DNA of 45,479 nt, filler included, from Jimgerdemannia flammicorona (lineage: Eukaryota), in NCBI GenBank assembly GCA_003990765.1. It is 2 parts of 2 records of this genome, joined end to end, with 100 filler letters (N's around TTAATTAATTAA, not from the genome) between each part and the next. Parts side by side here need not be neighbours in the genome. Positions count along the whole stretch, not along the records: positions 1 to 22,691 come from RBNJ01001224.1; 1 more part is not named here. One strand, written 5' to 3'. Made by a program: the position numbers and the translations under genes. Shown in pieces: positions 1 to 29,089 of the stretch. Below the pieces are notes generated by a model. That model made no database searches. It was not told the origin of the DNA and was given only the letters and a program-made list of their open reading frames with translations. How positions within the stretch are numbered: the stretch's first letter is position 1; every line of letters begins with the position of its first letter.

Positions 1-3000
1 GCTGTCCCCCCTGAGGACCCCAACCCACCCACCACCCAGTCAACAGATCCCCCAACAGCCCCTCCCACCTCAACACCTTCTCTTGCAGCCCTAACTGCTG
101 CCCCTCCTCAAATACAAAATGCCAATGGCCCACCAGGCCCACCCATACTGCTAATACCCACCCTACAGTGAGCCAACTATTATCCACCCCACCCATAAGC
201 TGAGATCTCAAGTCCTCCCAGCGACCCCCCTCCCCCACCAGCCTATGCCCCACACCCAGTCTATCCCCTATTACATTCCAAAATTCCCCCAAGACCTCAC
301 ACTCTCCCAGTCAATGTTCTGGCATCTGTATATAACCTCCAGCTCACCCAACACCGTAATACTCCTCACAGTCAAATTGTCCCCCATCTACCAAATACCC
401 TGTGTGGAAATTCAGCATGACATTCCTCCGCAACATCCTCCACCATATCACTCAGAACTTGGGAGGAAGCCACCTCTGTACCTCTGCACTCCAAGACCAG
501 ATACCAGCCCAGTCCCACTCCTCGCTGATCCCTGCTACCTGCCATCCACTTGGCCAAAGATTCTGGCCCAGTCCCTGCTGACACTCTACTCCCTCCCCAA
601 TATCGAACATAGCAAGTGGAGTACCCCCCAGGAGCAGTCTATCCCAACACCACATACTAGGCCCCCACACTGCCTCCCCCTTATTGCCCTGCCAGTGTAG
701 GCCAATTCGGTGTGCCCCATCAACCACGCCCCACCAAAAGCCCTTGAACCTCAGCCTCCTAATTCCATTCAGCCCCACCAAAGAGAGCAGATCTCCAGAG
801 AACTCTCGAGGGGATGTTCGCATCTCCCATACCTTCTGCAGCAGAGGCACCTACCCTCCGCCCTGTAGTTCCACAGCTCGTTTCAACCACCAGGCTCACA
901 AGCAATATAGCCTCTTAGGGAAATCCACTAGGCCAAGACCTCTCCTAACTACCAGTCTCGCAAGAGTATCCCAACTGACCTGAGACCTCCTCCCTGCCCA
1001 AATCCAATCCCTAGCCACCTTCATCAGCTTCCTCACCACCCACACTGGGAAGTCGAGGTGATATGCCACATACCACAGCTTGGGGAACCAATATACATTC
1101 AGGATTAACACCTGCCCTGCTAGAGAGATATGGCGGCCTCCCCAGCTTTGAAGGGCCTCCCCCCAAATGTTCACCCTGCTCTCCCACCACATGCGTGGCA
1201 AGACAGAACCATATACAGAGAGGAAGATACCCAGATACCGCACCACCTCACTAGTAGGGACAATTGTTCCAATGATGTCCCCACCCACTAGCCCATTCCC
1301 TAGCACCATCATCTCACACTTATGCCAGTTGAGCTTTGCCCCTGAGTGAGCCTCATACCATTCCACAGTCTCCTGAAGTACCTCTACATCTGCCACAGAC
1401 CCAAGTCCAACCACCATATCATCAGCAAAGGCCCCCACCTTCCACACTATACCATAAATAGATAGCCCTGCCACCTTCTGGCGAATCCTATCCATCAACG
1501 GCTCCAGCAAAAGTGCATAGAGAATAGGGGACAGAGGGTCCCCCTGAGGAACTCCTCTTCCAAGGGAAATGCCCTCCCACAGTGACCATTACATGTCAGA
1601 GCTGCCCGACTGCTTTTCAGCAGACTCAACATTGAGGCCCTAAATCTTGGGGGAACCCCAATTTGGTCCAATACCTTGCCCAGCCACACCCGCCATACAC
1701 GGTCGTAGGCCTTCTCCTGGTCCAAAAAGACCAACCTTCCATCCAGTCCACAGGCCCGGGCCCCTTCAATGACACCATGAACCCATGCAGTCCCATCTCT
1801 TATAAGTCGGCCCCCAACAAAGCCCTGCTGCTCCTCCCCCAGCACCTGTTGGGCAACTTTCTGCAGCCTTGCGACAATCACCTTGGTCACCATCTTTCTG
1901 TCCATGTCCAGAAGTATGATCAGCCTCCAGTTCTTCCAGTCTTCCCTCCTCCCCTTGTCTTTGTACAATAAGGCCACCAGTCTGAGATCCTGCTCTCCAA
2001 CCCACTCACTGCTCTGAAGGACATGGTCACAGAGAGCAGCCATCTCACCCAAAACTCTAGGGACATTTACCATCTTCTTCCAGAAGTCCCATGGCAATCC
2101 ATCCTCCCCTGGCGCCATCCTAAGTTTAGTAGCTGCCAGGACACTCTGGATCTCCTCTCCCTGCACTGGTAAGATCAAGTCACCCAGTCCAGCTACTTGC
2201 GGTGGCCCCCACTCTTCTAGTGTATCTGCAATCTCCAACTCATCAGCACCCCCTTCTCCCTCACTCCACAAGCCCTGCCATCTCTCCTTCAAAACCCCTA
2301 AGATTTGTTGTGTGCTGTGTACCATGTCCCCATCAGCATTCAGGACCCCATCCCACTGATGTCACACTCTCCTAGCTTTGAGAAGTCTTGATAGGTACCT
2401 AGTAGGCCACTCCCCCTCCTCAAGACCCTGCCACCTTAACCTAGCAGCCATGCCCTGCATATGGGTCTCCTCCTCTTCCCTCAACACCTGTTGTAGTTCC
2501 ACTATCTCCAATTTCGCCCTCTCTATTCTCCAGTCCTCCATCCCATCAACAGTGAGCAAATCTGCCCAATCCAATTGTAGTCTCCGCAGCCTACTGGAAG
2601 CATACCTTGTGCACCTCCTCCTCTGCCTACCAGCCTCTCTACCAGCCTCTCCCCAATAAACCCTCGTAGCCTCTTTCAATCTCATCTAGCAGACAGCCAC
2701 AGGCAAACCCTCACACCTCCAGTTAGAAACTTTTGCCTGAATGTCCTTCACCCACAATTCCCACAACCCCTTCTTGGCCAGCAGGGAGGAGTTAAGGCAC
2801 CAATGTCTGGGTCCATCTCCACTCCCCCCAAACTGCCCCTGCCCCACCAGTCCCCAGTGATCAGACCATGGGCACTACTCCACTTCCAATGCCTTCCAAA
2901 CATCTGAACCCCAGCACTCCACCATCAGAATCCAGTCAATCCTTGTGCCCAAGCCATTCACCCAATGTGTGTAGACCCTGGTGTTACCCCACCTTGTTCT

Positions 3001-3536
3001 GCCCATATCCCCCAAGGAGCTCAACGCCTCCACCTCCTCCCATGCATCCAGACCTCCACTTCTACCCCCAGCACTCCTCCCTCCATCAGTTCTGTCCAGA
3101 CGCTGATCCTGAACCATATTAAAATTCCCACCAAGCACATCGACCCTTCCTTCAAGAGAATACCCTCCTCCAGCAGCCTCCTAATCCATGCAGTCCTCTC
3201 ACCCCTAGCCACAGGGCAGTAGCAAGAGCCCACCTTCACTGATTCCCACCCTGGCCGATGCCAATCTCCCCAGACCAAGCGATTGCCCCAGCTCCTGATT
3301 CCCCCCAAGTCTCCTCTGCCCTTCTACACCAAAATCACTACCTTTCCAAACCAAGCAGTAGCCCCACCCCATTCCCTAGTCCACTCTACCTGATCATCCT
3401 CATCCTCACACCAAACATCCTATAGTAAGAAGAGATCAGCCTCCAATCCCTTGAGCCAAGTAAAAATGTTCTTACATCGCCCAGAGCCCCTCAACCCATT
3501 CATATTCAAGGAGAAAATGTTGGTTGTACTGTTCAT
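1..3536 (-). pseudogene. LINE ORF2 (APE endonuclease + reverse transcriptase + C-terminal Cys/His motif), disrupted
   Basis: Starts MNSTTNIFSLNMNGL...ADLFLL*D (APE N-terminus), then GGNFN and TRIDWIL, then RT motifs APGEDG, KNWRLI, EQQGFVGGR, LDQEKAYDRV, QGDPLSP (frameshifted), AFADD, YLGI and GLGL. Confidence 0.92.
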
Positions 3537-3567
3537 AAAGAAAAATGATATATCGTGGTCCCATCCT

Positions 3568-5599
3568 CTACAAGTCCGTACTCCGCTCCTCCTGCACCAA
3601 GTCCAAGTTATGTTCAGCAGCTAGTTCCCTCTCCCCAGCTTCCCTTGCTGCCAACTCTCCCAGAAGTTCCACCATTGCCCCATCTTCATACTCCTCAAAA
3701 TCCTTGCGATATTCCAGACAGGCCTCCTGCCAGAGCCATAGACCATGATTCTCTGCCCAGCAGTAGGCTGCCTGCTCACCAGCAACCACCCCCAGCTCTG
3801 CCTTCCTCACCTCATCAACCTCATATCCCTCCTCCTCCAGGAAAATTTCCAGAACCTCCACCTTCAGTGCCTCCACCATTCCATCACTATGCAGAATCCA
3901 TGCCCAATGCTTCTCAGGCATCGCTCACAGATCCACTTCTCCCAAAGCTTCTGCTATGAGATTATCCATCACCTTGCGCATCCACAACAAGTTCCCCACC
4001 TCCTTCCCTCCTGGAGTCCCTGGCCGTCCTGCATCCAGCATCATGGTGTCAGCTCCTACACTGGCAGCCTCATCCCACTCCTCCTCAGGGACATCCACCA
4101 GCTCATCCTCACCAACTGCCACCACCTGACCCCCTTGCTCCACATCAGGGACCCCAAAGTGCACCTGCTAGACCCCCTGCATCTGCATATCCTCCATCAC
4201 CCCTCTCTTCCAATTGGGCCCCTCCTGATAAGAGGGGGAGGGGTGGCATCCAACTCTGGCTCCCACACTTCAAAGGTACCATCAGCAAATGGGTCCTTGT
4301 CCAGCTTCTTCCCAGTCTCTGCCTCCTTCACCTCCACCTCCTCTCCTTCTTTACCAGCCCAGATACTGGCCTTAATGCCTCCAGACTCCTTGGCTCCAAC
4401 TGATGTCTTCTTCTCCCCTCCTGTCATACTTGCCAACAGCTCCCTCTGCCTCTTGTATCCCTGGGCCTGCTCCCACTGCTTCTTATCCATATGGATATGC
4501 TTCCCGCCCACAACCTCCAGATGCATCGACTCCTCATACAGTTTCCAGGCCTTTGCCCTCCTCTCTACAGCACCACTCAACTCCTCCAGCACCTCCAACA
4601 AGTCCTCCTCCTCCTTCTCACTCCCTTTCACCCTTGATACCTTACATACAACAGCCCCCCACATCAGCACTGAGGGCCAGTCACTTGTCTTCCCTGTAGC
4701 CTCCTTCCCTGCCAACCGAATCCTGACATCAATGTCGCCTGTCCTGAAAGTTGTCCCCTCTCACAACTGAAAGCCAATGTCCACCACATCACCATACTCG
4801 ACCATCACCTCTTCCACCCTCCTCCTAGTCTCCTCCTTAGTCATCATGGGCACTCCCCTCACCAGAAGCTGCACCACCCTGGGGTCCCACCTTAAGCACC
4901 TCACCATGGGGACCACCATCTCCCCAACCACCACTCCAGTCTTCATTGCCTCATCCAGTGGGCCCACCTCCTCAAAGCCCACCTCAACTCCTTCCAGTCT
5001 CTTCAAAAACTTCACTGAGGCCGCCCCAGCCACCTGCTTCGAAATCAGCCCCAGCACTATCCTCGCTGTCACTGCCAAGCCCCAGAAGCACAAGGTAACC
5101 ACGAACTCCGAGATTGACTTCTTGAGCAATGGGGCCACCACTAGTCCCGTTACACCATCCACCAGGTCTCCCTTCTGCATCGGGAACCCCTGCCCCCCCT
5201 GACCATCAGCTGTCACATCTCTTTTTTTTTCCTGATTCACAATCACGCCACCATCAGCAGTCCCACCACTACCCCCAGCAGTCCCTCCACTTCCCCCACC
5301 TCCCGCCAGCGAAGGCCCAGCTCCCCCAGCATTTCCATCCTTCTGCTTCCCCTTCCCTCCTGCCTGTCCACCATGAGTGCCCATCGGCCAGCCCCCATCC
5401 CTCAGCATGTCCACAAAGCTCCTCCCCTGCTCCCTCCAGCCCCCCCTCCAGTGCCACCTCCACTACCCAAGCTGCCCTGCCCACTCGAGCCACTGAAAGA
5501 CCCCATCCCCAATCCATACCCTCTCCTAACATGCTGCCAGTTGAAGGCCCCAGGTCCACCCAACCTAGTATGCACATCAGCTTGCTTACTAGTTGATAT
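3568..5599 (-). pseudogene. LINE ORF1 (nucleic-acid-binding, RRM-like), disrupted; start codon mutated to ATA
   Basis: Lies upstream of ORF2 on the same strand. The segment VQLLVRGVP...YGDVVDIGFQL...FRTGDIDVRI resembles L1-clade ORF1 RRM. Homologous to 34856-36880, which retains the ATG. Confidence 0.8.
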
Positions 5600-7152
5600 C
5601 TCCTTAATCTCTTTCTCCAATAAACGATTTGAAAGTGTGTTGGAAAGTGTGTGTAACATGAATTGTAGCGGAGAGAGATAACTGTAGCAAAATATCAATA
5701 ACTGATACATGTGAATATTATATATATTATGGTGAGTTTATAAACTGTTTATGAACTCTTTAACTAAAAAAATATTTTTTTTTAAAAGATATTCCTCCTA
5801 TGTATGAGAGGGATTTTCAAATTACTTAGTATTGTCAAATACCTTACAATATTTGTTAAGTGGTACTTCTATATCTTATTATTAGTCCAGACTGAAAAAA
5901 TACTTATAGATCAAGATATATTATTATCTCAATTTAATAAACTAAAAGAGCAGTTTGCAAAGATCTCACTAAGTTTACTAAACTTTGAAAAACTCTACTC
6001 TCTATAGTATATTTCTGAGTTAACTCAAAGATTTAGTATACTAGATAATACTAATATAAAGATAACTAAACATCAATATTATATGAAAGTTAAGATATCA
6101 TATTGATGAATAAACAAATGTGATTCTCTTCTCTAAGTTATCAAGTTTGTAGAGTGCCAAACAGTACTTAAGGACAAGCTTGATTATATTACAACCAGTA
6201 AGCTCATAGATACCTTAAGCTTACCAATAACTGAAAAATACTAGAATCTGAGTACTAGTATCTTTAAAGATGCACTCTATATTGATGAAATTTCAAAATT
6301 GTTTGAGCTATATAACCTCAAACTTATTACTCAGATGTTTTTTTATAATCTCCTATTTGCATCTAAAAATAGATATTATTATTGAGTGAATAGAAAGAAT
6401 CTTCTCAAACTTTCAAATCCAATAGTAAGTTATTTATGTTAAGTTAGCCTGTGAACCTTTTTGTGATATTTCTAATATTTCTTCTTGATCTCTATAGATT
6501 AATATCTTTACTACTTTATCAATTAGAGTTCATGACCTATTTGTAGATACAAAATTAAGTTTGGCTATATTTTACCAACTTGTCTACTGTAAGTGACAGT
6601 TCTATAAAAGTTTATGATATGACTGAATAGTATTGTATAATCTCACAGACAAGCAGTTTGAGATAAGATAAGATATAGACAAATATCTTTTTGCCCAAGT
6701 TCACCTTCTCTTCAAAATTGAGTAAGATCACCAAGTCTATCAGTAGTACAATATAGTAAATATTGAGAATTCTAATACTAAAAACATAATCTCTCATAAT
6801 TGTGAGATAGAAATAACTATCACTATATAAACTAGATAGTTCAATATTATATCTATAGATGTAATTATGTATTTGTATAATATACATGTAACCTTTATTT
6901 GAGAAATATGATTCAGTAAGAAAGAACTTAGTATATATATTAAATATATATTCTTTTCATTCATATTTAGTAAATAAGTATGCAGATTATGTATTATGAG
7001 AGGAACTTTTTCAAATATATTGTGACAAACCAGAATGTATCACCCAAATTATACCTTAGCCAGATAATGTGAACACACAGCATAGTAACCAGCAACCATT
7101 GCTGCAGAAACTGTATAAATAGTCAGACTACCAGATAAGATATATCTGTGCA

Positions 7153-7275
7153 GGACCTGCACACCTGTGCCAGACCTACATACTTGTGCTGGACCTGCAC
7201 ACCTGTGCCAGACCTATACACTTGTGCTGGACCTGCACACCTGTGCCAGACCTACACACTTGTGCTGGACCTGTA
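7153..7275 (+). repeat. 38-bp tandem repeat, 3 copies plus a partial (1 copy plus a partial in the 3' LTR)
   Basis: GGACCTGCACACCTGTGCCAGACCTACATACTTGTGCT repeated; single copy at about 17744-17781. Confidence 0.9.
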
Positions 7276-8078
7276 CAACTTGCCATAGATAGCAAATCTA
7301 TAGTTAGCCACATAGCAACCAGATAGCAACCAACTTGTATAAATTACCCAAGAGACAAGAGTGAATAAACCTCAGTCCGAAATTGAAGCAAAAGACAAGT
7401 CTGCCTACCACACTTCGAGAGGAACTCTACAGCCACTGCTAGGAGATTGTGAGCTTATTTCCCCACTCCAGTCTACTTTTTGACACAAAGAATGAGTCTG
7501 AAATACAAACACTAAAGAAGCCTCTAAAGATTGAGCATTGGTCCCCTTTCTACTCTGGTCCACTTTCCAATACAAAGAAGAGTTTGTTACATCTTTTTGG
7601 TTTGCTTGCCAGATAAGCCTGAAGATTTGCCACCAAGTTCAAGAAAGAACTTCGCCACCTTTTGAAGAACCTGCTGCTTAAGGAATAAGCCATGCTATTG
7701 GTATGCTTGCCAGATAAGCCTGAAGAACCCAAGGTTTCACCGCCATTCTTGCCACAAGTCAGTCTTTCTGATGCAACTTCGCAGTAGAGCCAGTCTACGA
7801 TATAACCCTGTGCAAATGAAGCCAGTCTTTGACATAACTTGCCAAGAATCCGAGTTATTTCCCAGAAGCCCACCGATTCTAGAGAATCTATGTCACCTGC
7901 CATTTTCGAGTTATCCGTATTCCCAGAAGAACCCACGCTATTCGAGTAATATTCCCAGTTAAAGCCAATTCGCATCATCCGAGTTATCTACACCATCCAA
8001 GTTATTTGTTATTCCCAGTGAGCCTGAGTTATCAAGTTATCCATCATCAGTATAATTCCCAGTAAGAAGAATTCACAC

Positions 8079-9549
8079 TGGATTTGGTGACTTCTTTTGC
8101 TCAAACCACTCAGAGCGAGCTAAGCCACACAGATAGGGGCAATACAGGCAACATGGGTAATATGGGCAACACAGGTGGGCAAGACGGGCAAGATGGCAAG
8201 ATAGCAAGATAGGCAATATGGGCAAGATGGGCAGATGGCAAGATAGGCAATATGGGCAAAATGGGCAAAATGGGCAATATGGGCAACATGGGCAATATGG
8301 GCGGACAATACTGGCAACATGGGCAATATGGGCAGACAACACAGACAACATGGGCAACATGGGTAACATGGGCAACATGGGCAGGCAAGACAGACAAGAC
8401 AGGCAAGACAGGCAAGATGGGCAAGATGGGCAAGATGGGCAAGATGGCAAGATGATAAGATGGGCAACATGGGCAAGACAGGCAAGACAGGCAAGACAGG
8501 CAAGACAGGCAAGACAGGCAAGATGGGCAAGATGGGCAAGATGGCAAGATGGCAAGACAGCAAGATGGGCAACATAGACAAGATGGGCAGATGGCAAGAC
8601 AGACAACATGGGCAAGATGGGCAAAATGGGCAAAATGGGCAAAATGGGCAACATAGGCAACACAGGCAACATGGGCGGACAACACAGGCAACACAGGCAA
8701 CATGGGTAACATGGGCAACATGGGCGGGCAAGATGGGCAAGATGGACAAGATGGGCAAGACAGACAAGATGGCAAGATGGGCGACATGGGTAAGACAGGC
8801 AGATGGCAAGACAGGCGACATAGGCAAGATGGGTAAAACAGGCAAAACAGGCAATATGGGCAATATGGGCAATACGGGCAACACGGGTAACATGGGCAAT
8901 ATGGGCAACATGGGCAACATGGGCAACATGGGCAACACAGGTGGGCAAGATGGGCAAGATGGGCAAGATGGGCAAGATGGGCAAGATGGGCAAGACAGCA
9001 AGATGGTAACATGGGCAAACATGGGCAACACAGGTGGGCAAGATGGACAAGACAGGCGATATGGGCAAGATGGGCAAAACAGGCAAAATGGGCAATACGG
9101 ACAACATGGGCAACATGGGCAACACAGGCAACATGGGACATGGGCAACACAGGTGGGTAAGACAGGCAAGACAGGCAAGATGGGCAAGACAGGCAAGACG
9201 GCAAGATGGCAATATGGGCAACATGGGTAACATGAGCAAGTAAGACAGGCAAGACAGCTATATGGGCAAGACAGGAGGCACTAATAGGGGTAGGTCAGAT
9301 GCACTAGATGCCAAGTACTTAAGGTAGTTGGGGCTTACAACCCATACCTACTGGGTGAGGCAGACCAGGTAGGAGGATCTAGTTACTCAGGCAGTGAGAT
9401 CACAACTCACACCCTAAAGGTGCAAGGCTGGGTAAGGATGAAGGTGGGTTGAGATTGGAGTAGAATGGGGCTACTGATGTTGTATGAGGATATGTGGCAT
9501 GTTATAGATAGTTAATAAATGAGGCTACAGAAAAAAAAAAAAAAAAAAA
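8079..9549 (+). mobile_element. Non-autonomous poly(A)-tailed retroposed insert (SINE-like) composed mainly of a 9-bp tandem array
   Basis: Absent from the 3' LTR. AATAAA at 9514-9519, A-tract at 9531-9551. Degenerate 12-bp TSD aagaattcacac (8067-8078) / aaggatttgtac (9550-9561) matches the empty site aaggatttgcgc in the 3' LTR. Confidence 0.85.
8138..9275 (+). repeat. Approximately 1.1-kb minisatellite of 8-9-bp units GGCAA(G/C/T/A)A(TG/CA/CG)
   Basis: Directly visible; it produces the repetitive ORFs in most frames. Confidence 0.97.
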
Positions 9550-10027
9550 AAGGATTTGTACCATACTCTATTCCCAGTGAGCCAAATCGAGTTACCCGCC
9601 AAATTATCAAAATGTCCCACATAAGAAACTCATCGTGCTACACAGAGATCACTATCCAAATTGTATAAGGAAAGCCGCCAAATTACCAGACCATTACGAA
9701 CAGAGATCATCATGCTATACAGAGATCACCTGTTACTCAAGAAAGAAACTGCTCACACTATATATAAATTCTGCCATTCTCAGTTGACCCAGGAAGGAAA
9801 CCCATTCATACAAATTGCCGCTATACCCAGAGAACCATCCCAATTAGGAAATCGACATACAAATCACTCGCAGATATCCAGCTTTGACTATTATACCACT
9901 AAATACCAAGGACCTCAGGAATCATAGAACATTTTGTTGCTTTTTGACAAAGTAACTGGGGGCTCAAGCCAAACTACATCAACCTCCAATCTTGTAATTT
10001 GCCTCTATTGAGCTGGCATGTTACATT

Positions 10028-10044
10028 TGGGGGCTCAACTGAGA
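10028..10044 (+). promoter_or_regulatory. Primer-binding site, tRNA-Pro type
   Basis: TGGGGGCTCAACTGAGA begins after a 2-nt spacer following the LTR end; resembles the tRNA-Pro PBS TGGGGGCTCGTCCGGGA. Confidence 0.75.
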
Positions 10045-10582
10045 AGATTTCAAATCAATGTGACTTTTCAGCTCACAAGAACCCACAGTCAAGCTGGATA
10101 CATTTGATACAACACCAATCTCTGCTACTACAGGAGAACCAGTTATCACCAGCATCTGGACAAGAAGAGAAGTAATTACTTCAAGACTTGCTAATTACCT
10201 AGCATCAGAAGGATTCCAACCAGAACCAGAAGGCAGTACAGCCTGAAATCTCCAACCAGATCAACCAGACAATACAGATAGCCCTCCAAGAGATTTTGGA
10301 GAACTTGCACAAGAACTAGAAGATCTTATCACACGAACCCAATACTTTACAGCCAGACACCCCACACCAGTTCCACCAATCTCACCAATAGAACCCCTAC
10401 CACAACCTCTTGCAGAACCAGAAGTAGCTCCTACAAGAATACCTAGGCCTATTCCACTCCATCCAAGGACCAGAACACCATCTTCAAGATACCCAAGCAC
10501 CCCCATCTCCAGTGACAGTTCAGAAAGTGAATCAGAATTAGAATCTGAACTTGAACTAGAATCAGAAGAAAGTGACAATGAA

Positions 10583-11506
10583 ATGGCCACCTCATTGCCA
10601 ATCTTTGCAGGATACTCAGAGAAAGACCCTAGAGAATTCCTTGATGGAATTGAAGGAATTGCAGCCTTGAGGAATCTCTTAGATGAAAGAAAAATTGCCA
10701 TCTACAAAGCTCAGCTCAGAGAACCAGCCAGAGGAATTTTCCATCGAACAGCAAACAACCGAGATTCAGAACTAGCAAGACAAATACAAGCAGTAATGTC
10801 TGATGAGCTAAAATATGAGGCCATGGTCCACTGGCTCATTGAAAAGTATGCAGGAAATGAAACCTGCCACAAGGCTCAAGAATCCATCATGGGGATGAAG
10901 ATGAATCTTGGAGAGTCACCCAGAGCCTTTTTTATAAGAATCCAGAAGAGAAGGCATTCTGCCAGATTCAATGCCACCAATCAGGACATCATAGGTCCAA
11001 TGACCTTCATGAATGGAATTCCTCCGAATATTGCTCAGCATGTCCACACTCTAGGCATCAGAAGGTCTGAAGAGCAAGTAGATGCAGCCCAAGGATTCTT
11101 TGATGTCAGACAAGGAACTACCTGGACTGATCATGACAGAAAAGAAAAGAAAGAAGACATCCTGGTCAAAGCCCTACAAGGACTCTTTCAAGGACAAGAA
11201 AGATCTGAAGAAAGAAGGCCAGCCAAGGAAGGAAAGAAGGACAAAAATGAAATCCAAGACCTCAGCTCTAAGTTAGACTGATTGGTTGGACAGATTGAAA
11301 AACTCACTACACATGAAAATCAGAGCTACCAAGATAACAGAGGATACCCACCACAGAGGAGCCAAGGTTATCCACCAAGAGATAATAGGAGTTATCAGCA
11401 AGAAGAGAGAAGATACCCTGTCCGAGACAGAGCCCAAGTCCAATACTTCTACTGTGGACAATTCAGACACTATGCCACTGAATGTGACAACAAAAGAAGT
11501 GACTGA
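10583..11506 (+). pseudogene. Gypsy gag (capsid + mutated CCHC knuckle); may extend upstream in frame
   Basis: LPIFAGYSEKDPREFL N-terminal motif, MNLGESPRAFFIRI (MHR-like), (C>Y)FYCGQFRHYATEC zinc knuckle. Same reading frame as the protease. Confidence 0.88.
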
Positions 11507-12089
11507 AGGAACTCAGAACTACCAAATTGAAGGAATGACACTCAGTACAAGAAGACTGAAGCCCATCCTGTTGAAGATTTCGAAGAAGCAAGTAATAGTA
11601 AAGACTACAGTGACCTAGACTTGTACCCCACTAAGGTTACAATCCAGAAAACAGTCTATCCAGCAGAGAAAAGAAAGAGACCTGTAGGAAGACCATCCAG
11701 GAACATCAGCAGAAGAATCTTCCAAGAAGAGGATGAAGAACATGAGGAGGAACAAGTAGAGACACCTCCCTGAACCCCTTCACCTTTTGTCTCCAAGACA
11801 AATAAGTTGCCACCAGAAGATGAAGAAATGGAATAAGAAGAATGGGAACCTGCTGCTCCAAAGCCTAAGAAGAAGTACACTCCAAAGACCATACCTAGAG
11901 ACATTTACAATGAAGCCTGGCAGAAGATTCAAGAAGCCAAGATGGAAGTTCCTCTCCTGCAGTTCTTGCAACTGACACCAGCTGGAGTCCAAAACAAATT
12001 GCTAAGAACCACCAGGTCTAGCACTGGCCGAGTTCCAATCCCACAGCAAGAACCAGCTTCCATCTCTGTCCAAGCAGCTGAAAGATATG

Positions 12090-12450: not shown

Positions 12451-13764
12451 GGTGACTAGCTATGAGCAATCAAAGAAGAAGAAGAAGGTCACTATTCAGG
12501 AGGAGTATGCCAGCAGTGAAGAATCCACCACAGAAGAAGAGGAAGAATCTGAAGATGGAAATGATCCCAGACTCAATCCCCAAATCAATCTGGTGGATGG
12601 CCAACCAGAAGATAATGTGTGGGCCAAGAACACTATCCCTATTACCATTGGAGCTATTGTAAGAGAAGCCAAAGGGTGCCCTATATGCCTCAAGAGACAC
12701 AAGTGTCCCAAGCACTCCTCCAAGATCATGGAAACAAGGAAATCGCCTGGCACAGCCTGCCCAGAATGCAGAAGGAAGAAGAAGAAATGCAGACATGTTT
12801 CAGAAACACCTGCAACTGAAGCTGCAGAAGTACAAGCAATTTGGGATCAAGAATCATCTGAGGAAGAAGAAACTTCTGACCAAGAAGTTCCTGAACAAGA
12901 AGCACCTGATGAAGAAGAGGTCCCTGAACTCATTCCCTGAGATGACCCTTGCTGGACACCACCTGAAGACAATGACCCTTGGAATACAGAAGAAGGATCC
13001 AGTACAATCACCACTATCCTCAAGAAAGAAACCCACCAAGAGAAAGCTTTTTGGCTAGGAAGATGTCTACACCAAATGGTCTTCCACTCTCCCTGAGACT
13101 ACCACTATCAGTGTCATCTGTTGGACCAACAAGAAAGACAGAGACCCCAGAGATCAGAACCATCAACTACTCTTGTACAGTCCACCACCTTTCAAGAAGT
13201 CACCACAAGGTTACAAAGTCGATTTAGGGGACAAGGCTTCTTCATCCAAACAGAAATATACCCCTTGTCTATCCTTCCCCCAACCTATGATCAAGATGGG
13301 TACTGATTCCCAAGACAACAAGAGATAAATAGCCAGAAACATCATTTTTGGGCAATGGGATATTGCAACCATAGGAGACACGCTGACTGCCGAGACTGCA
13401 GACATCAGAAGATTCACCTCAGTCATGATGTTGCAGTGCACACTTTGAAGAAAGGAGATAACTGAAGCCAGATCTGAAAAAGCCAGATTTGAAAAAGCCA
13501 GACCAAGAAGCCCAGAAAAAGATCCTCAAGATCTATAATTTGGGAGAAGACATCCTAGCTCTCATCAGACATGCAACCTGCCAAGAATGGGCAGAAGATG
13601 CCACCAACTTCATGGAAGCCCTTGACCCTACAGAAAGGAGGGGAATCAACTACCTCCGAGACCCCTCTACTGGAGCCAGATGGCCACACCTCAATCTTAG
13701 AGTCTGGAGGCTTTCCGCTAGCAGAGCTTCAGCCTTAGAAAAGCCTGAACTCAGCAAGGATATT

Positions 13765-14172
13765 GCCCAGTATGCCCTGCTGCACCCCAAGGCCAAACCC
13801 CTGACCAAAGCTCACCCAGAGGATATAGGATATGATCTTCACAGCCTGGAGGATGAATCTATCAAGCCTGGAAAAACCTTCATGGTCAGAACCAGATTAG
13901 CCATGCAGCCACCCCAAGGAGCTTATATTCAACTGACCTCAAGGTCCAGACTTGCCAGACAAGGGATAACTGTAGAAGGAGGAACCATTGACTCTAGATA
14001 TACAGGTGAAATCAAGGTCATCCTACACAACAGCAGTACAGAATAGCACCGAATTATTAGAGGACAGAAGATTGCCCAAGCAGTCTTCATGAAGGTCAAA
14101 ACCCCACAGTTACAGGAAGTCTATGAACTAACTAAAAGAACAAGACAAGCCAAGGGATTTGGAAATTCAGAC
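13765..14172 (+). pseudogene. dut: dUTPase domain in pol, between protease and RT
   Basis: Motifs IGYDL, SRSRLA (RSGLA), GGTIDSRYTGEIKV, GQKIAQ and RQAKGFGNSD (motif V); one in-frame stop at 14044. Confidence 0.93.
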
Positions 14173-14589
14173 AGGAAAGAGATACATCTCCTTCAAGTCA
14201 ACCACCTCAAGAGGAATATTTCCCAGCAAGTGTACTGGCAACCAGTCAGACTGCACAAGAATCTCATCCTGGAGCCCGGAGAATAAACTACCTTCGAAAT
14301 CTTTGCACCACCTGATCCCAGAAACCTTTTCTTTGAACCCAAGGAAGATATCCCACACCTGGATATAGAGGGACACACATTCCCTGACAAGATGAACCCA
14401 GTACACTCCTGAGCAACCAACCAAAGTTGGGAGACCATCATCTTGCTGAAAGAAACCATCATAGGACATCTGGTGCCTTTTCTCAACCGAACTCATAGGG
14501 AAGTTTATGAACTAAACCTATCAGGAAACGGCAAAAGGTCCCAGAAGAAAGGAAAGGCCCCTCTGCGACCCAGGAGACAGTGAAACCTT

Positions 14590-17611: not shown

Positions 17612-19057
17612 TGTGACAAACCAGAACATATCACCCAAATTATACCTTAGCCAGATGATATGAACACACAGTATAGTAACCAGCAACCATTGCTATGAAA
17701 ACTGTATAAATAGCCAGACTACCAGATAAGGTATATCTGTGCAGGACCTGCACACCTGTGCCAGACCTGCATACTTGTGCTGGATCTACACAACTTGCCA
17801 TAGATAGCAAATCTATAGTTAGCCACATAGCAACCAGATAGCAACCAACTTGTATAAATTACCCCAGAGACGAGAGTGAATAAACCTCAGTCCAAAATTG
17901 AAGCAAAAGACAAGTCTGCCTACCACACTTCAAGAGGAACTCTACAGCCACTGCTAGGAGATTGTGAACTTATTTCCCCACTCCAGTCCACTTTCCAATA
18001 CAAAGAGCGAGTCTGAAATACAAACACCAAAGAAGCCTCTAAAGATTGAGCATTGGTCCCCTTTCCACTCTGGTCCACTTTCCAATATAAAGAAGAGTTT
18101 GTTATGTCTTTTTGGTTCGCTTGCCAGATAAGCCTGAAGATTTGCCACCAAGTTCAAGGAAGAACTTTGCCACCTTTTGAAGAACCCGCTGCTTAAGGAA
18201 TAAGCCATGCTATTGGTATGCTTGCCAGATAAGCCTAAAGAACCCAAGTTTTCACCACCATTCTTACCACAAGCTAGTCTTTCTGATGTAACTTCACAGT
18301 GGAGCCAGTCTATGATGTAACCCCACACAAATGAAGCCAGTCTTTGATGTAACTTGCCAAGAATCCGAGTTATTTCCCAGAAGCCTGCCGATTCTAGAGA
18401 ATCTATGTCACCCACCATTTTCGAGTTATCCGCATTCCCAGAAGAACCCATGCCATCCAAGTAATATTCCCAGTTGAAGCCAATTTGCATCATCCGAGTT
18501 ATCTATGCCATCCGAGTTATTCATTGTTCCCAGTGAGCCTGAGTTATCGAGTTATCCATTGTCAGTATAATTCCCAGTAAGAAGGATTTGCGCCATACTC
18601 TATTCCCAGTGAGCCAAATCGAGTTACCTGCCAAATTATCAGAATGTCCCACATAAGGAACTTGTCGCACTACACAGAGATTGCCACCCAAATCATATAA
18701 GAAAAGCCACCAAATTACCAGACCATCATGTACAGAGATCATTGTGCTACACAGAGATCACCCATTACTCAAGAAGAAAACTGCTCATGCTATACACAAA
18801 TTCTGCCATTCCCAGTTGACCCAGAAAGGAAACCCATTCACACAAATCGCTGCTACATCCAGAGAACTGTCTCAATTAGGAAATCGACATACAAATCACT
18901 CGTAGATATCCAGCTTTGACTATTATACCACTAAACACCAAGGACCTCAGGAATTATAGAACATTTTATTGCTTTTTGACAAAGTAACTGGGGGCTCAAG
19001 CCAAACTACATCAACCTCCAACCTTGTAATTTGCCTCTATTGAGCTGGCACATTACA
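17612..19057 (+). repeat. 3' LTR (1446 bp)
   Basis: TGTGAC...ATTACA termini; TATA-like TATAAAT at 17853, AATAAA at 17879. Confidence 0.95.
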
Positions 19058-19933: not shown

Positions 19934-20507
19934 GAATATTGCTGATAGAATGGCTAAAGAAGTAAGATTGCTAAATAGATATAAATAGATATAGGGTTAG
20001 AATATTTTAAGGGTATGTGTGTATATATATGTAGAATCAAAATAACATTGTATAGTATTTGTATGTATTTCTGACCAATATGGCCTCTCTTTTCAGAGTA
20101 TCTTGATATAGTGAAAATATTCTGTGAGATATATGGATAGAGGCCAATTGAATATTATTTTGTTGTCAAATATATATATATATATATATATATATTATTT
20201 GTAAATATATAGTTGAACTAAATAGCCAAATATATAGACTAAAAATATAGTCATATAAACTTAGTATTACTTGCAATTGTGAGTAGTTTTTATTTGAGAA
20301 GTATATAATAGTATTAGGAGTATATGTTCAATAATGAATTATGTATAATATAAGAGTCTATAGATTATTATTAAAATTAAATCTTTATTGATATAAGTTA
20401 AGATTTTTGTATAGTATTTATAATATTTATTATTCATAGTATTCATAGTATAGTAGTGTTTATAATATAGTTTATAGATTTATTATAGATATATTTTATA
20501 TAATAAA

Positions 20508-22135
20508 TGTAAGAGAGTTACTTTATTAGAGTACTATTATATAGTTCTGAAGAGATTTTCTAGAAGTTCTAGATGTTCTAGAAGACTGTTTCTTTAAGAT
20601 TAAGATCAATTTTATATAGAGTATATCCTCTATACTTATTGATTTCAAAATTAGGTTAATATTTCAACCAAAGTCTCTTTTCAGACTTGTTCTGAATATT
20701 CAGGATTTTCTATATTTCAGGAAGTTCAAGAAACTAAGATCAGCTTAGTTGAATCAGTATATTGCTGTAGACAATACCTAATTAGGAAATTTCAGAATCT
20801 AGTTAAAAGTAGGATCTAATAGGGTATAAATTTACTTAAGAGTAGTTTGTGAGTTATTAAATAGATTTATTTGCTATTTATGATATTACTATAAGAGTAG
20901 TGTGTAAAGGGATATTTATATGGAGAAGTATTCTTGACTTATTTGTCTGTATTTTTGTCTGAATTTCTGAGGTCTGAGAGAGTGGGTATTTATACTTAAT
21001 GGGAGGCTATTTGAACTATACTAAATGTGGATATAGTACTTAGTGCTTTAATGAGTCAGAATATAGTCATGTAGTATAAGTGTGAACTAATATATTAAGA
21101 GATTGTCTGATAACTATAAAAAAAAAATATATATATATATATTGTCTAACTGCTGAGTTAGTATGCAGTTATGTAGTATAAGGCTAATCTAACTATACTA
21201 ATGACTACTAAGCTATCTATAGATTTAGATGCTGTCTGGATATTCTTCAATGAGGACACCATTAATGACATTATTTCTGATGAAGTCTGAGCAGTCTTAT
21301 GACTTCTGATGTCATCAGTTTTAAGGTATTGTTATATGTATCTATCCCTTGCAAAATTAGAGCTATCTTCAGTAGAGATAATTGTACAAGAATAGTAGGT
21401 CTTGGTTTTCTTTTTTTTTTTAACTATTGGTACATTTGCAAGGACTAGCTATTCTTGTCTAGGGTGAGGGCTTTCATTATAATAGCTGGGAGTTCAAACC
21501 TCTTAGAAATGATATTTTCTATAATCTGAGATAATTTCTAGTAGTAATATCTATTACATAGATAGGCTTGAGATTGGTTTTGATATTGTTAGCTTTCTTG
21601 AGTTCTATATAAAGTATCTGTCATTCTCTAATAAAGGTGATATAGATGGAGTAAATGGAGTTATTCAAATATATTTTACTTCTATTGAGTAATAAGATCT
21701 TATATAGTTATAGTATATCTTGGTCTTGAGTATAACTCTATCCAGAGTATTAAGTTGATAAGTATGATTCATGAACTTTTGATGGATGAGATAGGGTCTT
21801 TCTTATTTCAGTTTGAGTTTAGTACTCCAGTTTTCTTCTATAATGGTATAATATACTAAGACTAATTGTCTAATGAGTAGAGATTCAAGGTCAGCCTTGT
21901 GGTTATAGTACTTCTTCTAGCATTCTTGTATTCTGGTAATAAATTCTCATACTTGCTAGTATACTTTATATAATTAGGTGATTTCTTCAGTAACTTGTTT
22001 CATAATCTTGCATATAGTTTCCAAATTTGTTCTGAGGGTGATATGTGATTTTGGTGGCTTGGAGGTTGTATACTTATAACTCTCTCCTTCTTAGCTTTTG
22101 ACATCCTTGTCAAGGTCTTCTAATTTGGTCTAGTA
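20508..22135 (-). mobile_element. Degenerate remnant of a second Gypsy family (LTR-like segment + 3' internal region), copy 1
   Basis: 20510-21285 aligns with 42089-42848 and 21960-22135 aligns with 44040-44237; minus-strand TATAAATA at about 20990. Boundaries are approximate. Confidence 0.75.
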
Positions 22136-22791: not shown

Positions 22792-22887
22792 AAAAAAAAA
22801 AAAAAAAAAAAAAATCCCTGATCTTCACCCCAATTATCCCCATCCCTTACCTCCCTCCTCCCGACCCCTCACCAACCAAATACACAC

Positions 22888-25316
22888 CGACGAATGCTTC
22901 AAATCGATCCTCTCGACAACGACATACTCGTTTCCCATCGGCCCTCCTGACCTCATCTCGAGCACAACGATTGAGTACCACAGCACCTCTGCTTCGTCCA
23001 GGGCGCGGACCTGAGCTAGGTTGCCCACATACGACGTCAACACCACCAATTGATTGTCCCTGCAGATGGGTGCCGGCGGAATGGAATGGATGGATGGATG
23101 GATGAACGCATGCGTGTGGTGCGACGAATGCAAACCACCTCTCCCGCAAACCACCTCTCCCGCAAACCACCTCTCCCGCAAACCACCTCTCTCGCAAACC
23201 ACCTCTCCCGCAAACCACCTCTCTCGCAAACCACCTCTCTCGCAAACCACCTCTCCCGCAAACCACCTCTCCCGCAAATCACCTCTCCCGCAAACCCTCG
23301 CCCCCCTCTCACCAACCCTAAACACAACACACCTACTATACTCCAGATCCACCAGCGTAACCTTGAACGCCTTTTGGGGCATCTTGGCTTCCGGCTGCAC
23401 GTTACTGAGGATGTTCTCGCGGATTGGGGTGAGGATGTCCTGCTCAGAAACAAACTAAGAAAAGTGCAAATTCCCCGGGTGGAGTAAGGGGTGAGCATCT
23501 CCCTTATTGCGATTGCAACAAAACACCGCACAAGACCAATCAAATTTTACCTTCTCCACCGTGTTTTTGGAGACGATCCACTTCTGTATGGTGCGCGGTG
23601 TCAGTGCGTAGACCTCCCTGGACGGGTAATTTCGGAGGAAAGCGGAGAGAAATAGGTATAACGGAAATATGGTGGCGATTCTCATATTCATATCGGTGCA
23701 CATAAGTGCGAGCGTAAGTTCAGGCTTGCCTGTTGCGAAATAGCCATTAGTGGCGACGCGTCCTTCGTAACGATATGTCCTGCAATATAAACCATTCGAA
23801 GCCTAGCTGCAGAACATCTCCCATCGCTTTTATTCTCGCTCTCTCCTCCCTTAGCTCGCATCGACTCAAACCACGCCTCGTCACACGCCACTCCCTGCTA
23901 AATAAAAAAATAAATAAATATAAAAAAGAAAAAATGTAAACCCACCTCGCAACCTTTACCTCTCTCATTTCAACCCTAACACCGGGTACGATAGCGACTA
24001 CACGCCTCGCAACCTCAAGCTCCTCGTTCGTGGCATCCGGATCGCGGTAACCGAGCAAGTTCCCCACGCGCGCGAGGACGCCGACGGGTTTGGCGAGCGC
24101 CGAGGACTGCAGGCGCGGGTCGAGCGTGACGCGGAGGAGGCGAGTGTGCGATGTGCCGAGGATGTAGATGCCTTCCTGTGAGTTAAGGTGGGTAGGGTGG
24201 TGAGAAATTCGGCAGGTACGAATATGCAACGAGGGGTAAAGGGGAATTGTTTCTTCTCACTTCAACGACGTTGAAGACGGTGATGTTCTCCCCCTCATTT
24301 AGATACAGCCTAACGCTGCTGAACCTATCCGGGCTCGAGAGAGCCAGAGAAACGGCCTCCCAGTAACGAATCTCGCCGTCGACCGAGCAGGCGATGAGCC
24401 CCGGCTCGCGGTTTCGGTCGAGCGGGGGCACAATGACGACGAGGGGGAGAGGGGGGATAGGTTTGCCCGGGACGGTTATTTGCGGGAGAGGAAAGATGAA
24501 GCAGGTGGGAAGGGTGGGGACAGCGTGCTGTGACAAAGGGATTGGGTGTAAGTGGAGGCTCGAGAGAGCAAGGAGAGAAAAGGAAGGGGGACTTACGCGT
24601 TGGTAGAACCAGACAAAGGCATGGGATTTGGTCCAGACGAGGGCATAGCCGATGGTCGGATCGACGCGTGCGCCATAGGCATGTTGGTAGAAGTCCACGC
24701 GACCATCTGTTGTTGTTTGTTTGGAAAAATGGTTTGAGGGGCTGACTTTCGTTTCGACGTAGTGAGATAACCCAAGAACTTTGCAGCTCTTCATTCACTT
24801 CACACATGCCGCCGATCCATATATCTCCCACACACCTGAGTCCCGAAAAGCCTCCTGCACCTCCGACGGGATCTTGCCCAGTACCTCCACAACATGCTTA
24901 TCGCCCTCAACTAGCGTGTTGGCGTTTCGCCATGACGGCGGCTCGAGGTCCATGGTTGTGCGATCGTCATCGAGGACGGAGCCTTCCAAGGCTGGCACCT
25001 CGGGTTCGGCGTAACGAGTGAGGACGGACTCGTGGACACGAGGCCGTTGGACACGCTGTTGCTGGAGCTCCGGGTAAAGTGCGCTAATAAAGGAGACGGG
25101 TTCAACCAGACGGGTGGTTCCCTGCTGGCGCGACGAGAAAGGGTCGGCGACGACGGTGGTGGGTGCGTTTTCCGGGCCGGGAGAGGGTTGCGGGATGAGT
25201 TGTGGCGGTGGCTGTTGTGGCGCTGGGGTGAAGATGGGTTTTGCGGGAGGTTGCAGGCCGGCAAACTGGTCTGCATTGCGCTTTCTTGATGTGCGGGATG
25301 GTGTTTGGGTGAACAT
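22888..25316 (-). CDS. NUP133: Nucleoporin Nup133-like, N-terminal beta-propeller part (gene cut off at the gap). Approximate exons 25316-24836, 24706-24597, 24527-24261, 24175-23946, 23617-23551, 23454-23333, 23059-22888
   Basis: Phase-consistent GT-AG introns. The protein has a disordered N-terminus, then GYALVWTKSHAFVWFY, EPGLIACSVDGEIRYWEAVS, YILGTSHTRLLRVTL and REVYALT..IQKW, recognised as Nup133 N-domain motifs. Confidence 0.8.
23131..23296 (+). repeat. 15-bp minisatellite (CAAACCACCTCTCYCG-like, about 11 copies) in a Nup133 intron
   Basis: Directly visible; lies within intron 23332-23060. Confidence 0.93.
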
Positions 25317-28300
25317 CGTTATGGGGGAAGGAGAGAAAGGAATAGCGTAAATTCGCGTCGCCAAACACCAAACAATGGCTTCGGGGATGACGTCACCAAA
25401 ATCTCCCAAAAGTCGTATTGTTATTTCCTCTAGCACTAAGGGATTAAGTAAATATACCTGTAGCCTCGCTTTTTGTTGCATCTCAGGACAATTGCACTTC
25501 CGACTGTACATCAATATTGTCGACTACCACCTTTTTCTCTTGTCGACGACCCCCGTGCCATACGCCGAGTACTACGGACGCGTTGCTGTCGAAAGTGCTG
25601 CGCAACAAATCTGACGAGTTCACGTGATGACCATGGTCACCTCTGTTCAGCCCACACGCTAGAAGACCATTACCTGCCATTTAGCGAGGAGTTGGAGTAA
25701 GGATGGCAGCCTTTTGTGAGGACTGCCAAGTTATTTGCATACTTTGAAGTTTCGCGGACACAAAGAGGAACTAGGCGACACATAGTCTTGTTTTATGTGC
25801 ATCATTGAGGGCAGTATCGGCATATTAAACTTCAAGTTTACTGAGCAAAATATGGTATCAACTTTAAAATGATTTAATGCTTGGTATCATTTATTTAAAC
25901 TATTAAAGTGTTTGAAGAGATATCTTTTAATATTTTATAAAAATAAATAAATAAACTATTTACTAATATATGATATCGTCATTGTCATTAATCTCGCCTT
26001 CCTCCTCCTGAGCCTAATAATTAATATAGAAATCAACTACTATATTTACACCACAAATATCAAACCAAAGGCATGATACTGACATCATAATAATTTATAT
26101 CGTTCTGCTTGGCCTGGTCGTCCAGCAGAGTCGTGGAGTTTACCTAAATGTGTATAAATCAACAAAGTTTAAAACATATCACAATGCACTATGACGATGT
26201 CGTACATTACTTAAGGACCTACCAGCTGTATCCCTTCTAGGTTTCCCTTCTTTGGGGGCATAATTCTTTCAGACGATTCATCCACCATTGATGGTTTTTG
26301 ATCGCCAGAGAGCTGCCAGTATGTCGGGCCCGTAAAAGGCGGATGGTGCATGTGAATCAAGGACTGACCGACATCTTTTTTTTTTGACTGATCTAACGGC
26401 GTTCAAGGCCTCCTTGCCATTTGACGATCTGGTCGAGAACCCTAGCATGGAACACTCGGAAAAATTAGTAAGTTGTCTCCATCCCGTCAGATGAGCTAGT
26501 AGTCTTGAATGTGAAACGACCTAGTGTCAGGTCAGTTAGTAGTAACCTTAAACATAAAACAACCTAGTAAGTTGCCCATACCCAACAATGGCTTTGTGGC
26601 TCGGCTAACCTTGTATGAACTGACGACCTACATTTACCAACAAAAAGATTTTTATTTTATATCTACCAAGGAGCAACTGTTCTCTTTCATACTGTTGCCT
26701 TGCTCACGGTTAGCGATAGTTTCATCTGGATATGAAATGGTTCTAAATGACATTCATGCAGAAATCCGTGTGGATGATTTGCGATCGAGATAATCATTTC
26801 GCTCTGTTTCCAGACATGAACTGAAAGGAATGCGAGTAAGTCATCATTGTGTTAGATCACTGTGCCTGGGGGATACTAAATCTTATCCCCGTAAGTTTTA
26901 CAGGCCAGAGAGGTAGAAACGGAGCGAAATGGCAAGAGGAAGAGGAGGAACTTACTGGCGAACTCGATTACGATAATTTATCAGTGTCGTGGTGTGCAAA
27001 AAAAAAAAAAAAAAAAAAGTGGCATGGAAACGGGGAAATCGTCAAGGATCAATTGCCTGAAATATTGGTGGGCGTCAACAAAATGCAAAACGAGATTCGC
27101 AAACAGGAACAGAATGATGGCAGGGCAAATGGCGTGGGTGCAAAATGCCCACGTCGCCAGCCTGAACAGGCAAATGGGCGGTCGAAAAAAAAGCGACGGG
27201 TTTACCTGATGGACACGTATATACATGGAAGTTGAGCACAGCGACCAATAAGGCAAAGACTGATAGGACGAGTGTTTGATGTTTACGGAGGCACTCTGAG
27301 GATGAGGGAGAGACGACCTCACCCAATTATCAGCCTATTTCGCAGCACATCCACCGTCTTTCCTTTTACCGTCGCGCTGGCCTGTTCGATTTCATAGCGA
27401 TATTCAAAGCTCAAGTGGGGCTCTCGCGTCACCCGCTCTCAGCGGATCTCTTGAAAGACTTGAAGACCTCCACGGGAATGCCGCCGGCATACTATGAATA
27501 TAACGGAGGATATAATGGAAGTTTTCTCCACGTCTGTGTCTTCGAGACGGAGACAAAACATTTGATAAGTGCTTATTTACACAGGGTCTTTCCACACAAA
27601 CAACGGAAGACGTAATTCACGAACTGCAAAAGTGGCTTCGCATGAGCTCTAGAACATAGGTCCCAATTGGAAATAAAAAAGAGAAATATATTTTATTTAT
27701 TTATAGCTAAAGCTAGCTATAATGTAATTTATAAGGTATATTTAATTATATTTAAATATTTAGTAATTTATTAATTAATTATTAGTTTTTATTATTTATA
27801 TTTTTATATTTTAAAATAATATTACAAATTAAATTTTAAATAAAATTAAATAAAGTTCTTTTTAAATATTATTAGTAGTTATATATTAAAGATATTTAAA
27901 ATAAAATATTTTATTTATCAAATTTATTAATAAAACATAAAACTCTATAGTATAGTAATAATTCTTATAAAAATACTTTAAAAATATAGCCAGCTCATCA
28001 GACACATAGATAACATCACACGATCCGTCAACCCCTAATTCGTATTTTAACATTTTCATTTATTTAATTGCTTATTTTTTAAATAATAATAATAATAATA
28101 AACAATACAATCAACCATCCCACACCCACACCAAGTGCAAGGCGAGATTTGGGGCATCGACAATGAAGTTGATCAATACCCCCAAAAGCCCAAAAGAAGT
28201 CAACCTTCCAAGCGTATTTACCATTCCCCACACATTCTCGACCATAGAAACAAGCTTCGTTTCACGAGCGCAGAAATGTGGAACGGTAAGCGTTTGGGAT

Positions 28301-29089
28301 GGGGTTGCACACGCCAAGCCGCGTTAGGCAAGCGGCGCAACGATGTGGGGTTGTGGGACGTGACGTGGGTCGTCGATCACACCCTCCTCTCCAGTCGCTA
28401 TATATATAATTATATATTTGCCCCAGGAAAGGGGCGGTGGGGCCGCGGTGATGTAAAGCTTGCTATTGTATGTTACGTGGCCGCCCCTGTTCCCCATTCC
28501 CAAACCTACCCCAGCCATATCAACGCCACAGATGGTAACACAGCCAAGAGACATTGGTCGGTCTATGGAAATTACTTTGTTTTGTATTTTGTATTTTGTA
28601 TTTTTCTTTCTTCTAAAACAGGGTGCGCGCGAACACAGGAAGTTCAGATTTTAAGAACCTTTCCCGTTGCACGGGATGATCATAGTTTTTGGCGTTTTCA
28701 TGATGGCGGAAAATGAAGGACGATTACGTCTTGCACGACGGAATTTCAAATGATTAGGTTTGGAGTACGAGAAGAGTGGGGGAGGGGGAGTAGAGAAGAA
28801 ATAAGAGTTCACACCACAGCCAAGGGTTAAGCAGAGCAGGAAAAAAAATGTACAAAAGAAAAACATTGGGGAGGGGAAGAAAATGGAATATACAGTTGAG
28901 TCAACCCACCCATCTCACATCCCCATTGGAGTCTTTAACATCCACTCACGGCGTGCTCAACAACGACACCATTAACCACGCGCCGCACACCCACACGGCA
29001 GCCCTAATGACCCACGCATACCCATCCGTATCCTCAAACCCAGCATCGCTCCCCTCTCCCAAAAGCTGCTCTCCGATCCAACCATACAG

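Follow-up and report, generated by a model that had tools for sequence, protein, structure and literature searches.

A 1471-bp block inside the 5′ long terminal repeat (LTR) of a degenerate Ty3/Gypsy element of Jimgerdemannia flammicorona (GenBank assembly GCA_003990765.1) very probably reached its site by way of an RNA copy, through target-primed reverse transcription of the kind carried out by long interspersed nuclear elements (LINEs). The block occupies positions 8079–9549 of the window, by which we mean the whole stretch of DNA analyzed, 45,479 nt made of two genome records joined by filler letters. It consists mostly of a 9-bp minisatellite, ends in a polyadenylation signal and a poly(A) tract, and is flanked by a worn 12-bp target-site duplication (TSD). 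If it was retroposed, we suspect, in a call that comes close to even without quite reaching it, that the block belongs to a small, low-copy, non-autonomous, LINE-dependent family bearing a variable number of tandem repeats (VNTR), and not the copy of a cellular gene; we regard the status of a family as plausible.

The insertion is delimited by the two LTRs of its host, which were placed at 7021–10025 and 17612–19057 from direct-repeat families D4, D5, and D7 together with local alignments. Both LTRs open with TGTGACAAACC and close with TTACA, which gives them TG..CA ends, and ATAT stands on the outer side of each; with the insert taken out, the 5′ LTR (plus strand) is 91.8% identical to the 3′ LTR. 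The left flank of the 5′ LTR can be aligned to the 3′ LTR as far as 8073, opposite 18588 (977 columns, 92.7% identity), and the right flank picks up at 9547, opposite 18579 (479 columns, 89.8% identity), leaving at 8079–9549 an extra block of approximately 1471 bp for which the 3′ LTR has no equivalent. There the sequence runs uninterrupted across the target (..CCCAGTAAGAAGGATTTGCGCCATAC..), and the empty site, AAGGATTTGCGC, is found at 18582–18593 on the plus strand, both by reading the sequence and in the LTR alignment. Because only one LTR carries the block, the Gypsy integration is the older of the two events. Judged from predicted domains, the order between the LTRs (a weak aspartyl-protease match, dUTPase, reverse transcriptase [RT], RT-type RNase H, and the zinc finger and core of an integrase) is that of Ty3/Gypsy elements, and these domains are interrupted by many stops. 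The dUTPase domain lies between protease and RT at 13462–14283 (E = 7.5e-17 and 2.4e-5). One report describes the same placement for a Gypsy element in Postia placenta, a basidiomycete, and mentions Gypsy elements with a dUTPase in Phanerochaete and Tuber as well (PMC2864245).

Read along the plus strand, the block begins with a unique leader of 59 nt (8079–8137), single copy in the window, which opens with TGGATTTGG. There follows an array of 9-bp units of the form GGCAA-N-A-(TG/CA/CG/TA) at 8138–9274, delimited by Tandem Repeats Finder (TRF) and a parse of the units, in which blocks of one unit type are set off by recurring 13-bp punctuation units. A unique 3′ tail of 256 nt (9275–9530) is G-rich and C-poor, with a GC skew of +0.36, and includes an AATAAA polyadenylation signal at 9514–9519, 11 nt ahead of a run of A. 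The pure poly(A) tract numbers 19 A (9531–9549), or 21 uninterrupted A if 9550 and 9551 are counted, and those final two may be part of the TSD. The left copy of the TSD, AAGAATTCACAC, lies at 8067–8078 and the right copy, AAGGATTTGTAC, at 9550–9561, both on the plus strand. The copies agree at 8 of 12 positions and differ by a transition at each of the other four; an equal or better match occurred at a frequency of 4e-5 among 200,000 random 12-mers of LTR composition compared in a fixed register. Their length of 12 bp falls inside the variable range, roughly 7–20 bp, of target-primed insertions. The initial annotation had reported a 1471-bp block present in the 5′ LTR and absent from the 3′ LTR, a leader of about 60 nt, a 1.1-kb array of 9-bp units, AATAAA with a tract of 21 A, and a degenerate 12-bp TSD; all of this agrees with our reading (TRF period 9 for the array), except that the array ends at 9274 and not 9275; the tail measures 256 nt.

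The wear on the TSD has a parallel in the LTRs themselves, whose 119 aligned differences comprise 116 transitions and 3 transversions. By context, 22 of the transitions fall at CpG, 31 at CpA/TpG, and 63 elsewhere. The observed-to-expected ratio (o/e) of CpG is 0.13–0.19 in the LTR element, the insert, and both LINE copies of the window, with 0.14 in the array, and 1.02 in a gene-like stretch at 22800–31000. Mutation of repeats in this genome is almost purely C-to-T and G-to-A, which points to a cytosine deamination targeted to repeats, either driven by methylation or akin to repeat-induced point mutation. Decay restricted to C and G spares a tract of A, and this explains how a worn TSD can stand beside an intact poly(A) run; the target reads ..GCGC in the 3′ LTR and was thus open to such decay, so that the TSD would have eroded rapidly. 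The array is as decayed at C and G as the LTR, from which it follows that most of the array is old.

TRF reports the array at 8176–9240, with a period of 9, 119.9 copies, 75% matches, and 9% indels; our parse anchored 114 units as GGCAA-N-A-XY. Position N is G in 57 units, C in 35, T in 13, and A in 9, and the suffix XY is TG in 70, CA in 34, CG in 5, and TA in 5. The spacing between anchors (n = 102) is 9 bp in 69 cases, 8 bp in 10, and 13 bp in 8. Units of one N type stand together in 40 runs against 73.5 ± 4.5 in shuffled arrays, none of 5000 shuffles being this low, and the XY types are clustered weakly (300 of 5000 shuffles). Blocks of AAC units close with the 13-bp unit GCAACACAGGTGG at 8166, 8932, 9025, and 9144, variants of which are found at 8323, 8372, 8666, and 8715; the 13-bp units are succeeded by blocks of AAG units, often in the company of 8-bp units. 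The array, whose GC skew is +0.33, has a higher-order pattern like that of an organized VNTR. Deamination turns CG into TG or CA, and transitions at position N turn C into T and G into A; most simply read, the ancestral array would have had two kinds of unit, GGCAAGACG and GGCAACACG, each with a single CpG.

All three plus-strand frames of the array contain stops, and the frame of the repeat shifts repeatedly; the array is non-coding, each frame being interrupted by units of 8 and 13 bp, lengths that are not multiples of 3. The minus strand has long open frames, a consequence of unit composition. For the same 8- and 13-bp units, and for want of any frame kept open, a retrocopy of a collagen-like gene coding for G-X-Y repeats is ruled out, and a G-X-Y reading is in any event trivial for a 9-mer with GG. 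A 27-mer consisting of three copies of GGCAAGATG matched two loci in viral contigs (IMG/VR), a collagen-like coding array (L001) and a short coding repeat, both judged unrelated; the matches between L001 and the insert run from array to array, with nothing to the leader or tail. L001 holds, at about 1160–2310, some 1 kb of 9-bp repeats that are 71–78% identical to the array, and its periodicity suggests a collagen-like G-X-Y coding array. A 23-mer of array punctuation had one match in a collection of genome contigs, to a GC-rich bacterial gene without an array, which we judged to be chance.

The leader and tail carry no Pfam domain in any frame, and tblastn of their frames against the window revealed no likeness (best E = 0.14, outside both LINE copies). 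Rfam returned no family at E ≤ 1 over 7000–10500, 7SL included, and ARAGORN found no tRNA-like gene in the insert. Descent of the leader from the LTR next to the target was considered and set aside, since 118 of 1000 shuffles reached the score of that comparison, and a 12-mer common to the leader and the second LINE copy, at 40157, is likewise not significant (31 of 200 shuffles).

The window itself holds a candidate source of the enzymatic machinery. One degenerate LINE (copy A), at approximately 1200–5130 on the minus strand, has two RT matches (E = 1.7e-10 and 2.3e-14) and a weak match to Exo_endo_phos (E = 0.0068), the latter not passing Pfam's cut-off. A second degenerate LINE (copy B), at 35320–40659 on the plus strand and our candidate for the mobilizing family, is 70–73% identical to the reverse complement of copy A, with which it aligns over 35320–39248; its 3′ end has AATAAA at 40603–40608 and an A-rich tail at 40624–40659. 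The closest longer proteins, at 25–36% identity, combine an apurinic/apyrimidinic endonuclease (APE) with RT and RNase H and in some cases also carry zf-RVT; the named relatives come from agaric fungi (basidiomycetes) and, more weakly, plants. The label L1/Tx1-like, which the initial annotation gave to the resident family, is best treated as tentative. Both copies belong to a single LINE group, and their sense strands (1–5130, minus; 35320–40659, plus) are G-rich and C-poor, with GC skews of +0.45 to +0.61. The filled and empty sites, the AATAAA and poly(A), the TSD, the lack of a tRNA, 5S, or 7SL head and of any domain, and a resident LINE of the APE and RT type with an A-rich 3′ end together provide good support for LINE-driven retroposition. 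On this point, and on the want of a recognizable tRNA or 5S head (no Rfam match, no ARAGORN match), we concur with the initial annotation.

A course of events can be proposed from what is established for LINEs of the APE type. The block would have been copied into DNA from a polyadenylated, non-coding transcript, some three-quarters of which was 9-nt tandem repeat. Such an RNA would have been transcribed from a Pol II-type (RNA polymerase II) promoter and cleaved and tailed downstream of AAUAAA, and its poly(A) tail would then have been taken up by the endonuclease and reverse transcriptase of the resident LINE. At some time after the Gypsy integration, the bottom strand of the LTR would have been nicked at ..CCTT/CTTAC.. 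and the cDNA primed on the poly(A) tail; a second nick, staggered by 12 bp, would have given rise to the TSD. Thereafter the block presumably decayed as the LTRs did, almost only by C-to-T and G-to-A changes, which would have turned GGCAA-S-ACG units into their TG and CA variants while sparing the A tract.

Tails related to that of the block occur outside the window. A run index matched only two sequencing runs, X1 (labeled soil metagenome) and X2 (organism A), with a share of 0.06 each, and contigs of both were aligned to 9258–12000, a span that takes in the tail, the poly(A), the right part of the LTR, and the gag region; the poly(A) junction (9522–9560) was masked. No RNA run was among the matches listed by the index, a result that carries no information on expression. 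The Gypsy family is present in both runs, at high depth in X1, with 954 aligned X1 contigs, 151 of them at 99% identity or better, and 61 X2 contigs, mostly below 95%. The tail, too, is in both, at approximately 90–95% identity. In X1 the tail bins 9258–9349 and 9350–9441 have summed depths of 30.9 and 42.4 from two to three contigs and the bin 9442–9533 a depth of 7.3, where X1 contigs of a single variant, among those listed, have depths of 2.5–3.5. The X1 tail contigs differ from the window jointly, by A>G at 9326, T>C at 9336 and 9349, A>G at 9358 and 9364, C>T at 9366, and an insertion of TCT after 9351. An X2 contig of 288 nt (depth 2.2) spans 9268–9521 with 20 differences and 3 gaps, and it has five of the X1 differences in common; at these five sites both runs have G or C and the window A or T, so the copy in the window fits a decayed member of a set. 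One X1 contig has a loose end upstream of 9274 that reads GGCAAGATGGGCAAGATGG; the array adjoins the tail there also, and hence some of the array, at least, is ancestral.

A number of observations weigh against the account given so far, some touching the manner of insertion and others the existence of a family. The TSD is imperfect, with 4 of its 12 positions mismatched, and it has a competitor in a perfect direct repeat, the 7-mer GGATTTG at 8080–8086 and 9552–9558 (P = 0.009). This target 7-mer recurs 10 nt inside the break, within the start of the insert, TGGATTTGG, and may reflect (i) chance, (ii) microhomology at the 5′ junction, or (iii) a more complex junction. The bottom-strand nick we place at ..CCTT/CTTAC.. 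would be pyrimidine-rich but only moderately T-rich, and it is not of the form TTTT/AA. As for a family, no second copy of leader or tail was found in the window, where the best other blastn matches are of 12–22 nt with E ≥ 0.025. A 24-mer of the leader and one of the tail each had no match in a collection of viral contigs, the tail 24-mer had none in a collection of metagenome contigs, and the punctuation 23-mer of the array had none in either. In the contigs of the two runs, the array seen beside a tail amounts to 19 nt; depth is not the same thing as copy number, and in X1 the bins of the flanking LTR (9534–9809) have depths of 22, 3, and 29, no higher than the tail. No second insertion site or different TSD was seen in the X1 and X2 contigs, in which the poly(A) junction is masked, and because of that masking the other copies of the tail could share the same site in the LTR, by way of an LTR subfamily or a duplication.

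Three other explanations of the block deserve consideration. It could be a 5′-truncated copy of an autonomous LINE subfamily that carries a 9-bp array in its 3′ untranslated region (UTR), the leader marking the point of truncation and the tail the end of the UTR. Truncation at the 5′ end is the usual outcome of LINE insertion, the GC skew of the tail resembles that of the LINE sense strands, and the elevated tail depth in X1 would suit the 3′ end of a LINE equally well. An ungapped comparison anchored on AATAAA found 10 of 14 positions equal between insert and copy B (TATAGA, then TAATAAATG), where the maximum at 56 other AATAAA sites was 9; this test was picked after the pattern had been seen, and the match is for that reason a mere lead. 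A gapped comparison around AATAAA is not significant, its score being reached by 1515 of 5000 shuffles and at 21 of 56 other AATAAA sites in the window. With the poly(A) included, the alignment of the tail to the end of copy B has a score that none of 200 shuffles reached, which is attributable to the runs of A; without the poly(A), the tail is not significantly similar to the last 624 nt of copy B, the one LINE 3′ end compared (41 of 300 shuffles), and the 5′-truncated LINE that the initial annotation had named as a refutation received no support from this comparison. Nor is there collinear homology between the insert and the 3′ part of copy A or copy B, the tblastn comparison of leader and tail frames gave nothing in either, and TRF detects no 9-bp array in copy B. 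We consider a truncated LINE unlikely.

The block might instead have arisen once, as the processed retrocopy of a Pol II transcript of the cell, either a long non-coding RNA or an mRNA with a long repeat; the tails in other contigs would then belong to the gene of origin or its paralogues, or else to this very insertion, multiplied by duplication of the LTR or of a larger segment. AATAAA, poly(A), and TSD are exactly the marks expected of such a retrocopy. An ancestral CpG every 9 bp would fit an origin in unmethylated gene space of normal CpG content, such as 22800–31000, and since the depth of the flanking LTR in X1 is not above that of the tail, the tail need not outnumber the variant of the LTR. 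The block has, however, neither an open frame nor a Pfam domain, the frame-breaking 8- and 13-bp units are part of the pattern of the array, and the X1 tail contigs, at some 10 times the depth of a single variant and about 5% removed from the window, look like several diverged copies and unlike a lone parent gene. For these reasons a single retrocopy seems to us rather improbable.

A third possibility, which is independent of the other readings and which we think very unlikely, is that the inserted retroposon or retrocopy was short, with a poly(A) and a few 9-bp units, and that the 1.1-kb array grew later at this locus by replication slippage or unequal exchange, in which case the element as it moved would not have been chiefly minisatellite: the clustering of unit types is what local DNA-level duplication leaves behind, and remodeling of VNTRs at that level is described for SVA and LAVA (PMC4432496), but the clustering is silent on whether duplication preceded or followed insertion, array units adjoin the tail in another copy in X1, and the array has decayed to the same extent as the LTR.

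The family reading, to which we return, can be set beside systems already known. The closest functional analogues of the block appear to be the VNTR composite retrotransposons (SVA, LAVA, PVA, and FVA). SVA-group elements have a 5′ (CCCTCT)n hexamer repeat and an Alu-like domain, and their VNTR is composed of GC-rich units of 30–50 bp. Like them, the block would derive from a non-coding, non-autonomous RNA with a central, organized, CpG-rich tandem-repeat domain and a unique 3′ domain; it has AATAAA, a poly(A) tail, and a TSD of the variable-length kind, and its mobilization by a LINE in trans is presumed. Unlike them, it has in its leader neither (CCCTCT)n nor an Alu-like domain (no Rfam matches), its units are of 9 bp, although its VNTR blocks are non-random as well, its host is not a primate and is probably a fungus, as the depth of the Gypsy family in a soil metagenome, the agaric relatives of the LINE, and the placement of the dUTPase also suggest, and its tail is of untraced origin. 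The block thus lacks the defining features of membership in the SVA group. One report describes these composite families as hominoid-specific, with organized VNTRs, remodeling at the DNA level, and mobilization in trans by L1 (PMC4432496). On that description, any likeness of the block to them would be convergent.

Resemblances to other retroposons are less extensive. With short interspersed nuclear elements (SINEs) and other short LINE-dependent retroposons the block shares a lack of coding capacity, a poly(A)-type 3′ end, and a TSD, and possibly also a short 3′ motif in common with the resident LINE, the 10-of-14 match being suggestive only. It differs from SINEs in having no Pol III (RNA polymerase III) head, a length of 1471 bp, a minisatellite body, and an AATAAA that points to 3′ processing of the Pol II type; the lack of a Pol III head and the length of 1.5 kb rule out a SINE. 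Processed retrocopies have identical marks of insertion, but the block has no remnant of an open reading frame, and more than one copy of its tail seems to be present in another data set. At the level of titles and the openings of abstracts, the literature yielded no LINE-dependent element bearing a VNTR or other tandem repeat outside primates, which is weak evidence of absence.

It is conceivable, although we would lean against it at present, that the block represents an independent, non-primate, probably fungal family of SVA design, in which a LINE-dependent non-coding RNA carries a CpG-rich VNTR of 9-nt units between a short leader and a tail of some 250 nt and moves by means of its poly(A). 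Such a family would spread minisatellite arrays through the genome by way of RNA, and would offer a concrete route for seeding minisatellites at new loci. As a second, unrelated lineage, it would indicate that repeat-array RNAs riding on LINEs are a recurring solution, and it would provide a simpler system in which to study what the repeat domain contributes to mobilization and silencing. Should the block prove to be a truncated LINE or a lone retrocopy, it would be an ordinary nested insertion, whose main use would be to supply a dated marker within a pair of LTRs.

Elsewhere in the window, a frame resembling the N-terminal part of Nup133 (23747–25523, minus strand; E = 3.6e-7) lies in the stretch of normal CpG content and continues upstream in frame past one stop at the 24794/24795 border, a stop that could mean that the frame is a pseudogene, that an intron intervenes, or that a sequencing error is present. 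A 79-nt tract at 31474–31552 is 87% A with few G/C interruptions and falls inside a CpG-normal region. An AT-rich dispersed repeat is present at 20469–21108 and 42047–42711, the two copies being 78–87% identical and about 21.6 kb apart (families D6 and D8–D10). Two further tandem arrays are evident, one at 23130–23296 with 10.4 copies of the 16-bp unit GCAAACCACCTCTCCC at 96% matches, and another at 45290–45479, which comprises 13.6 copies of the 14-bp unit ATCCGAATCACCCC and runs off the end of the window.

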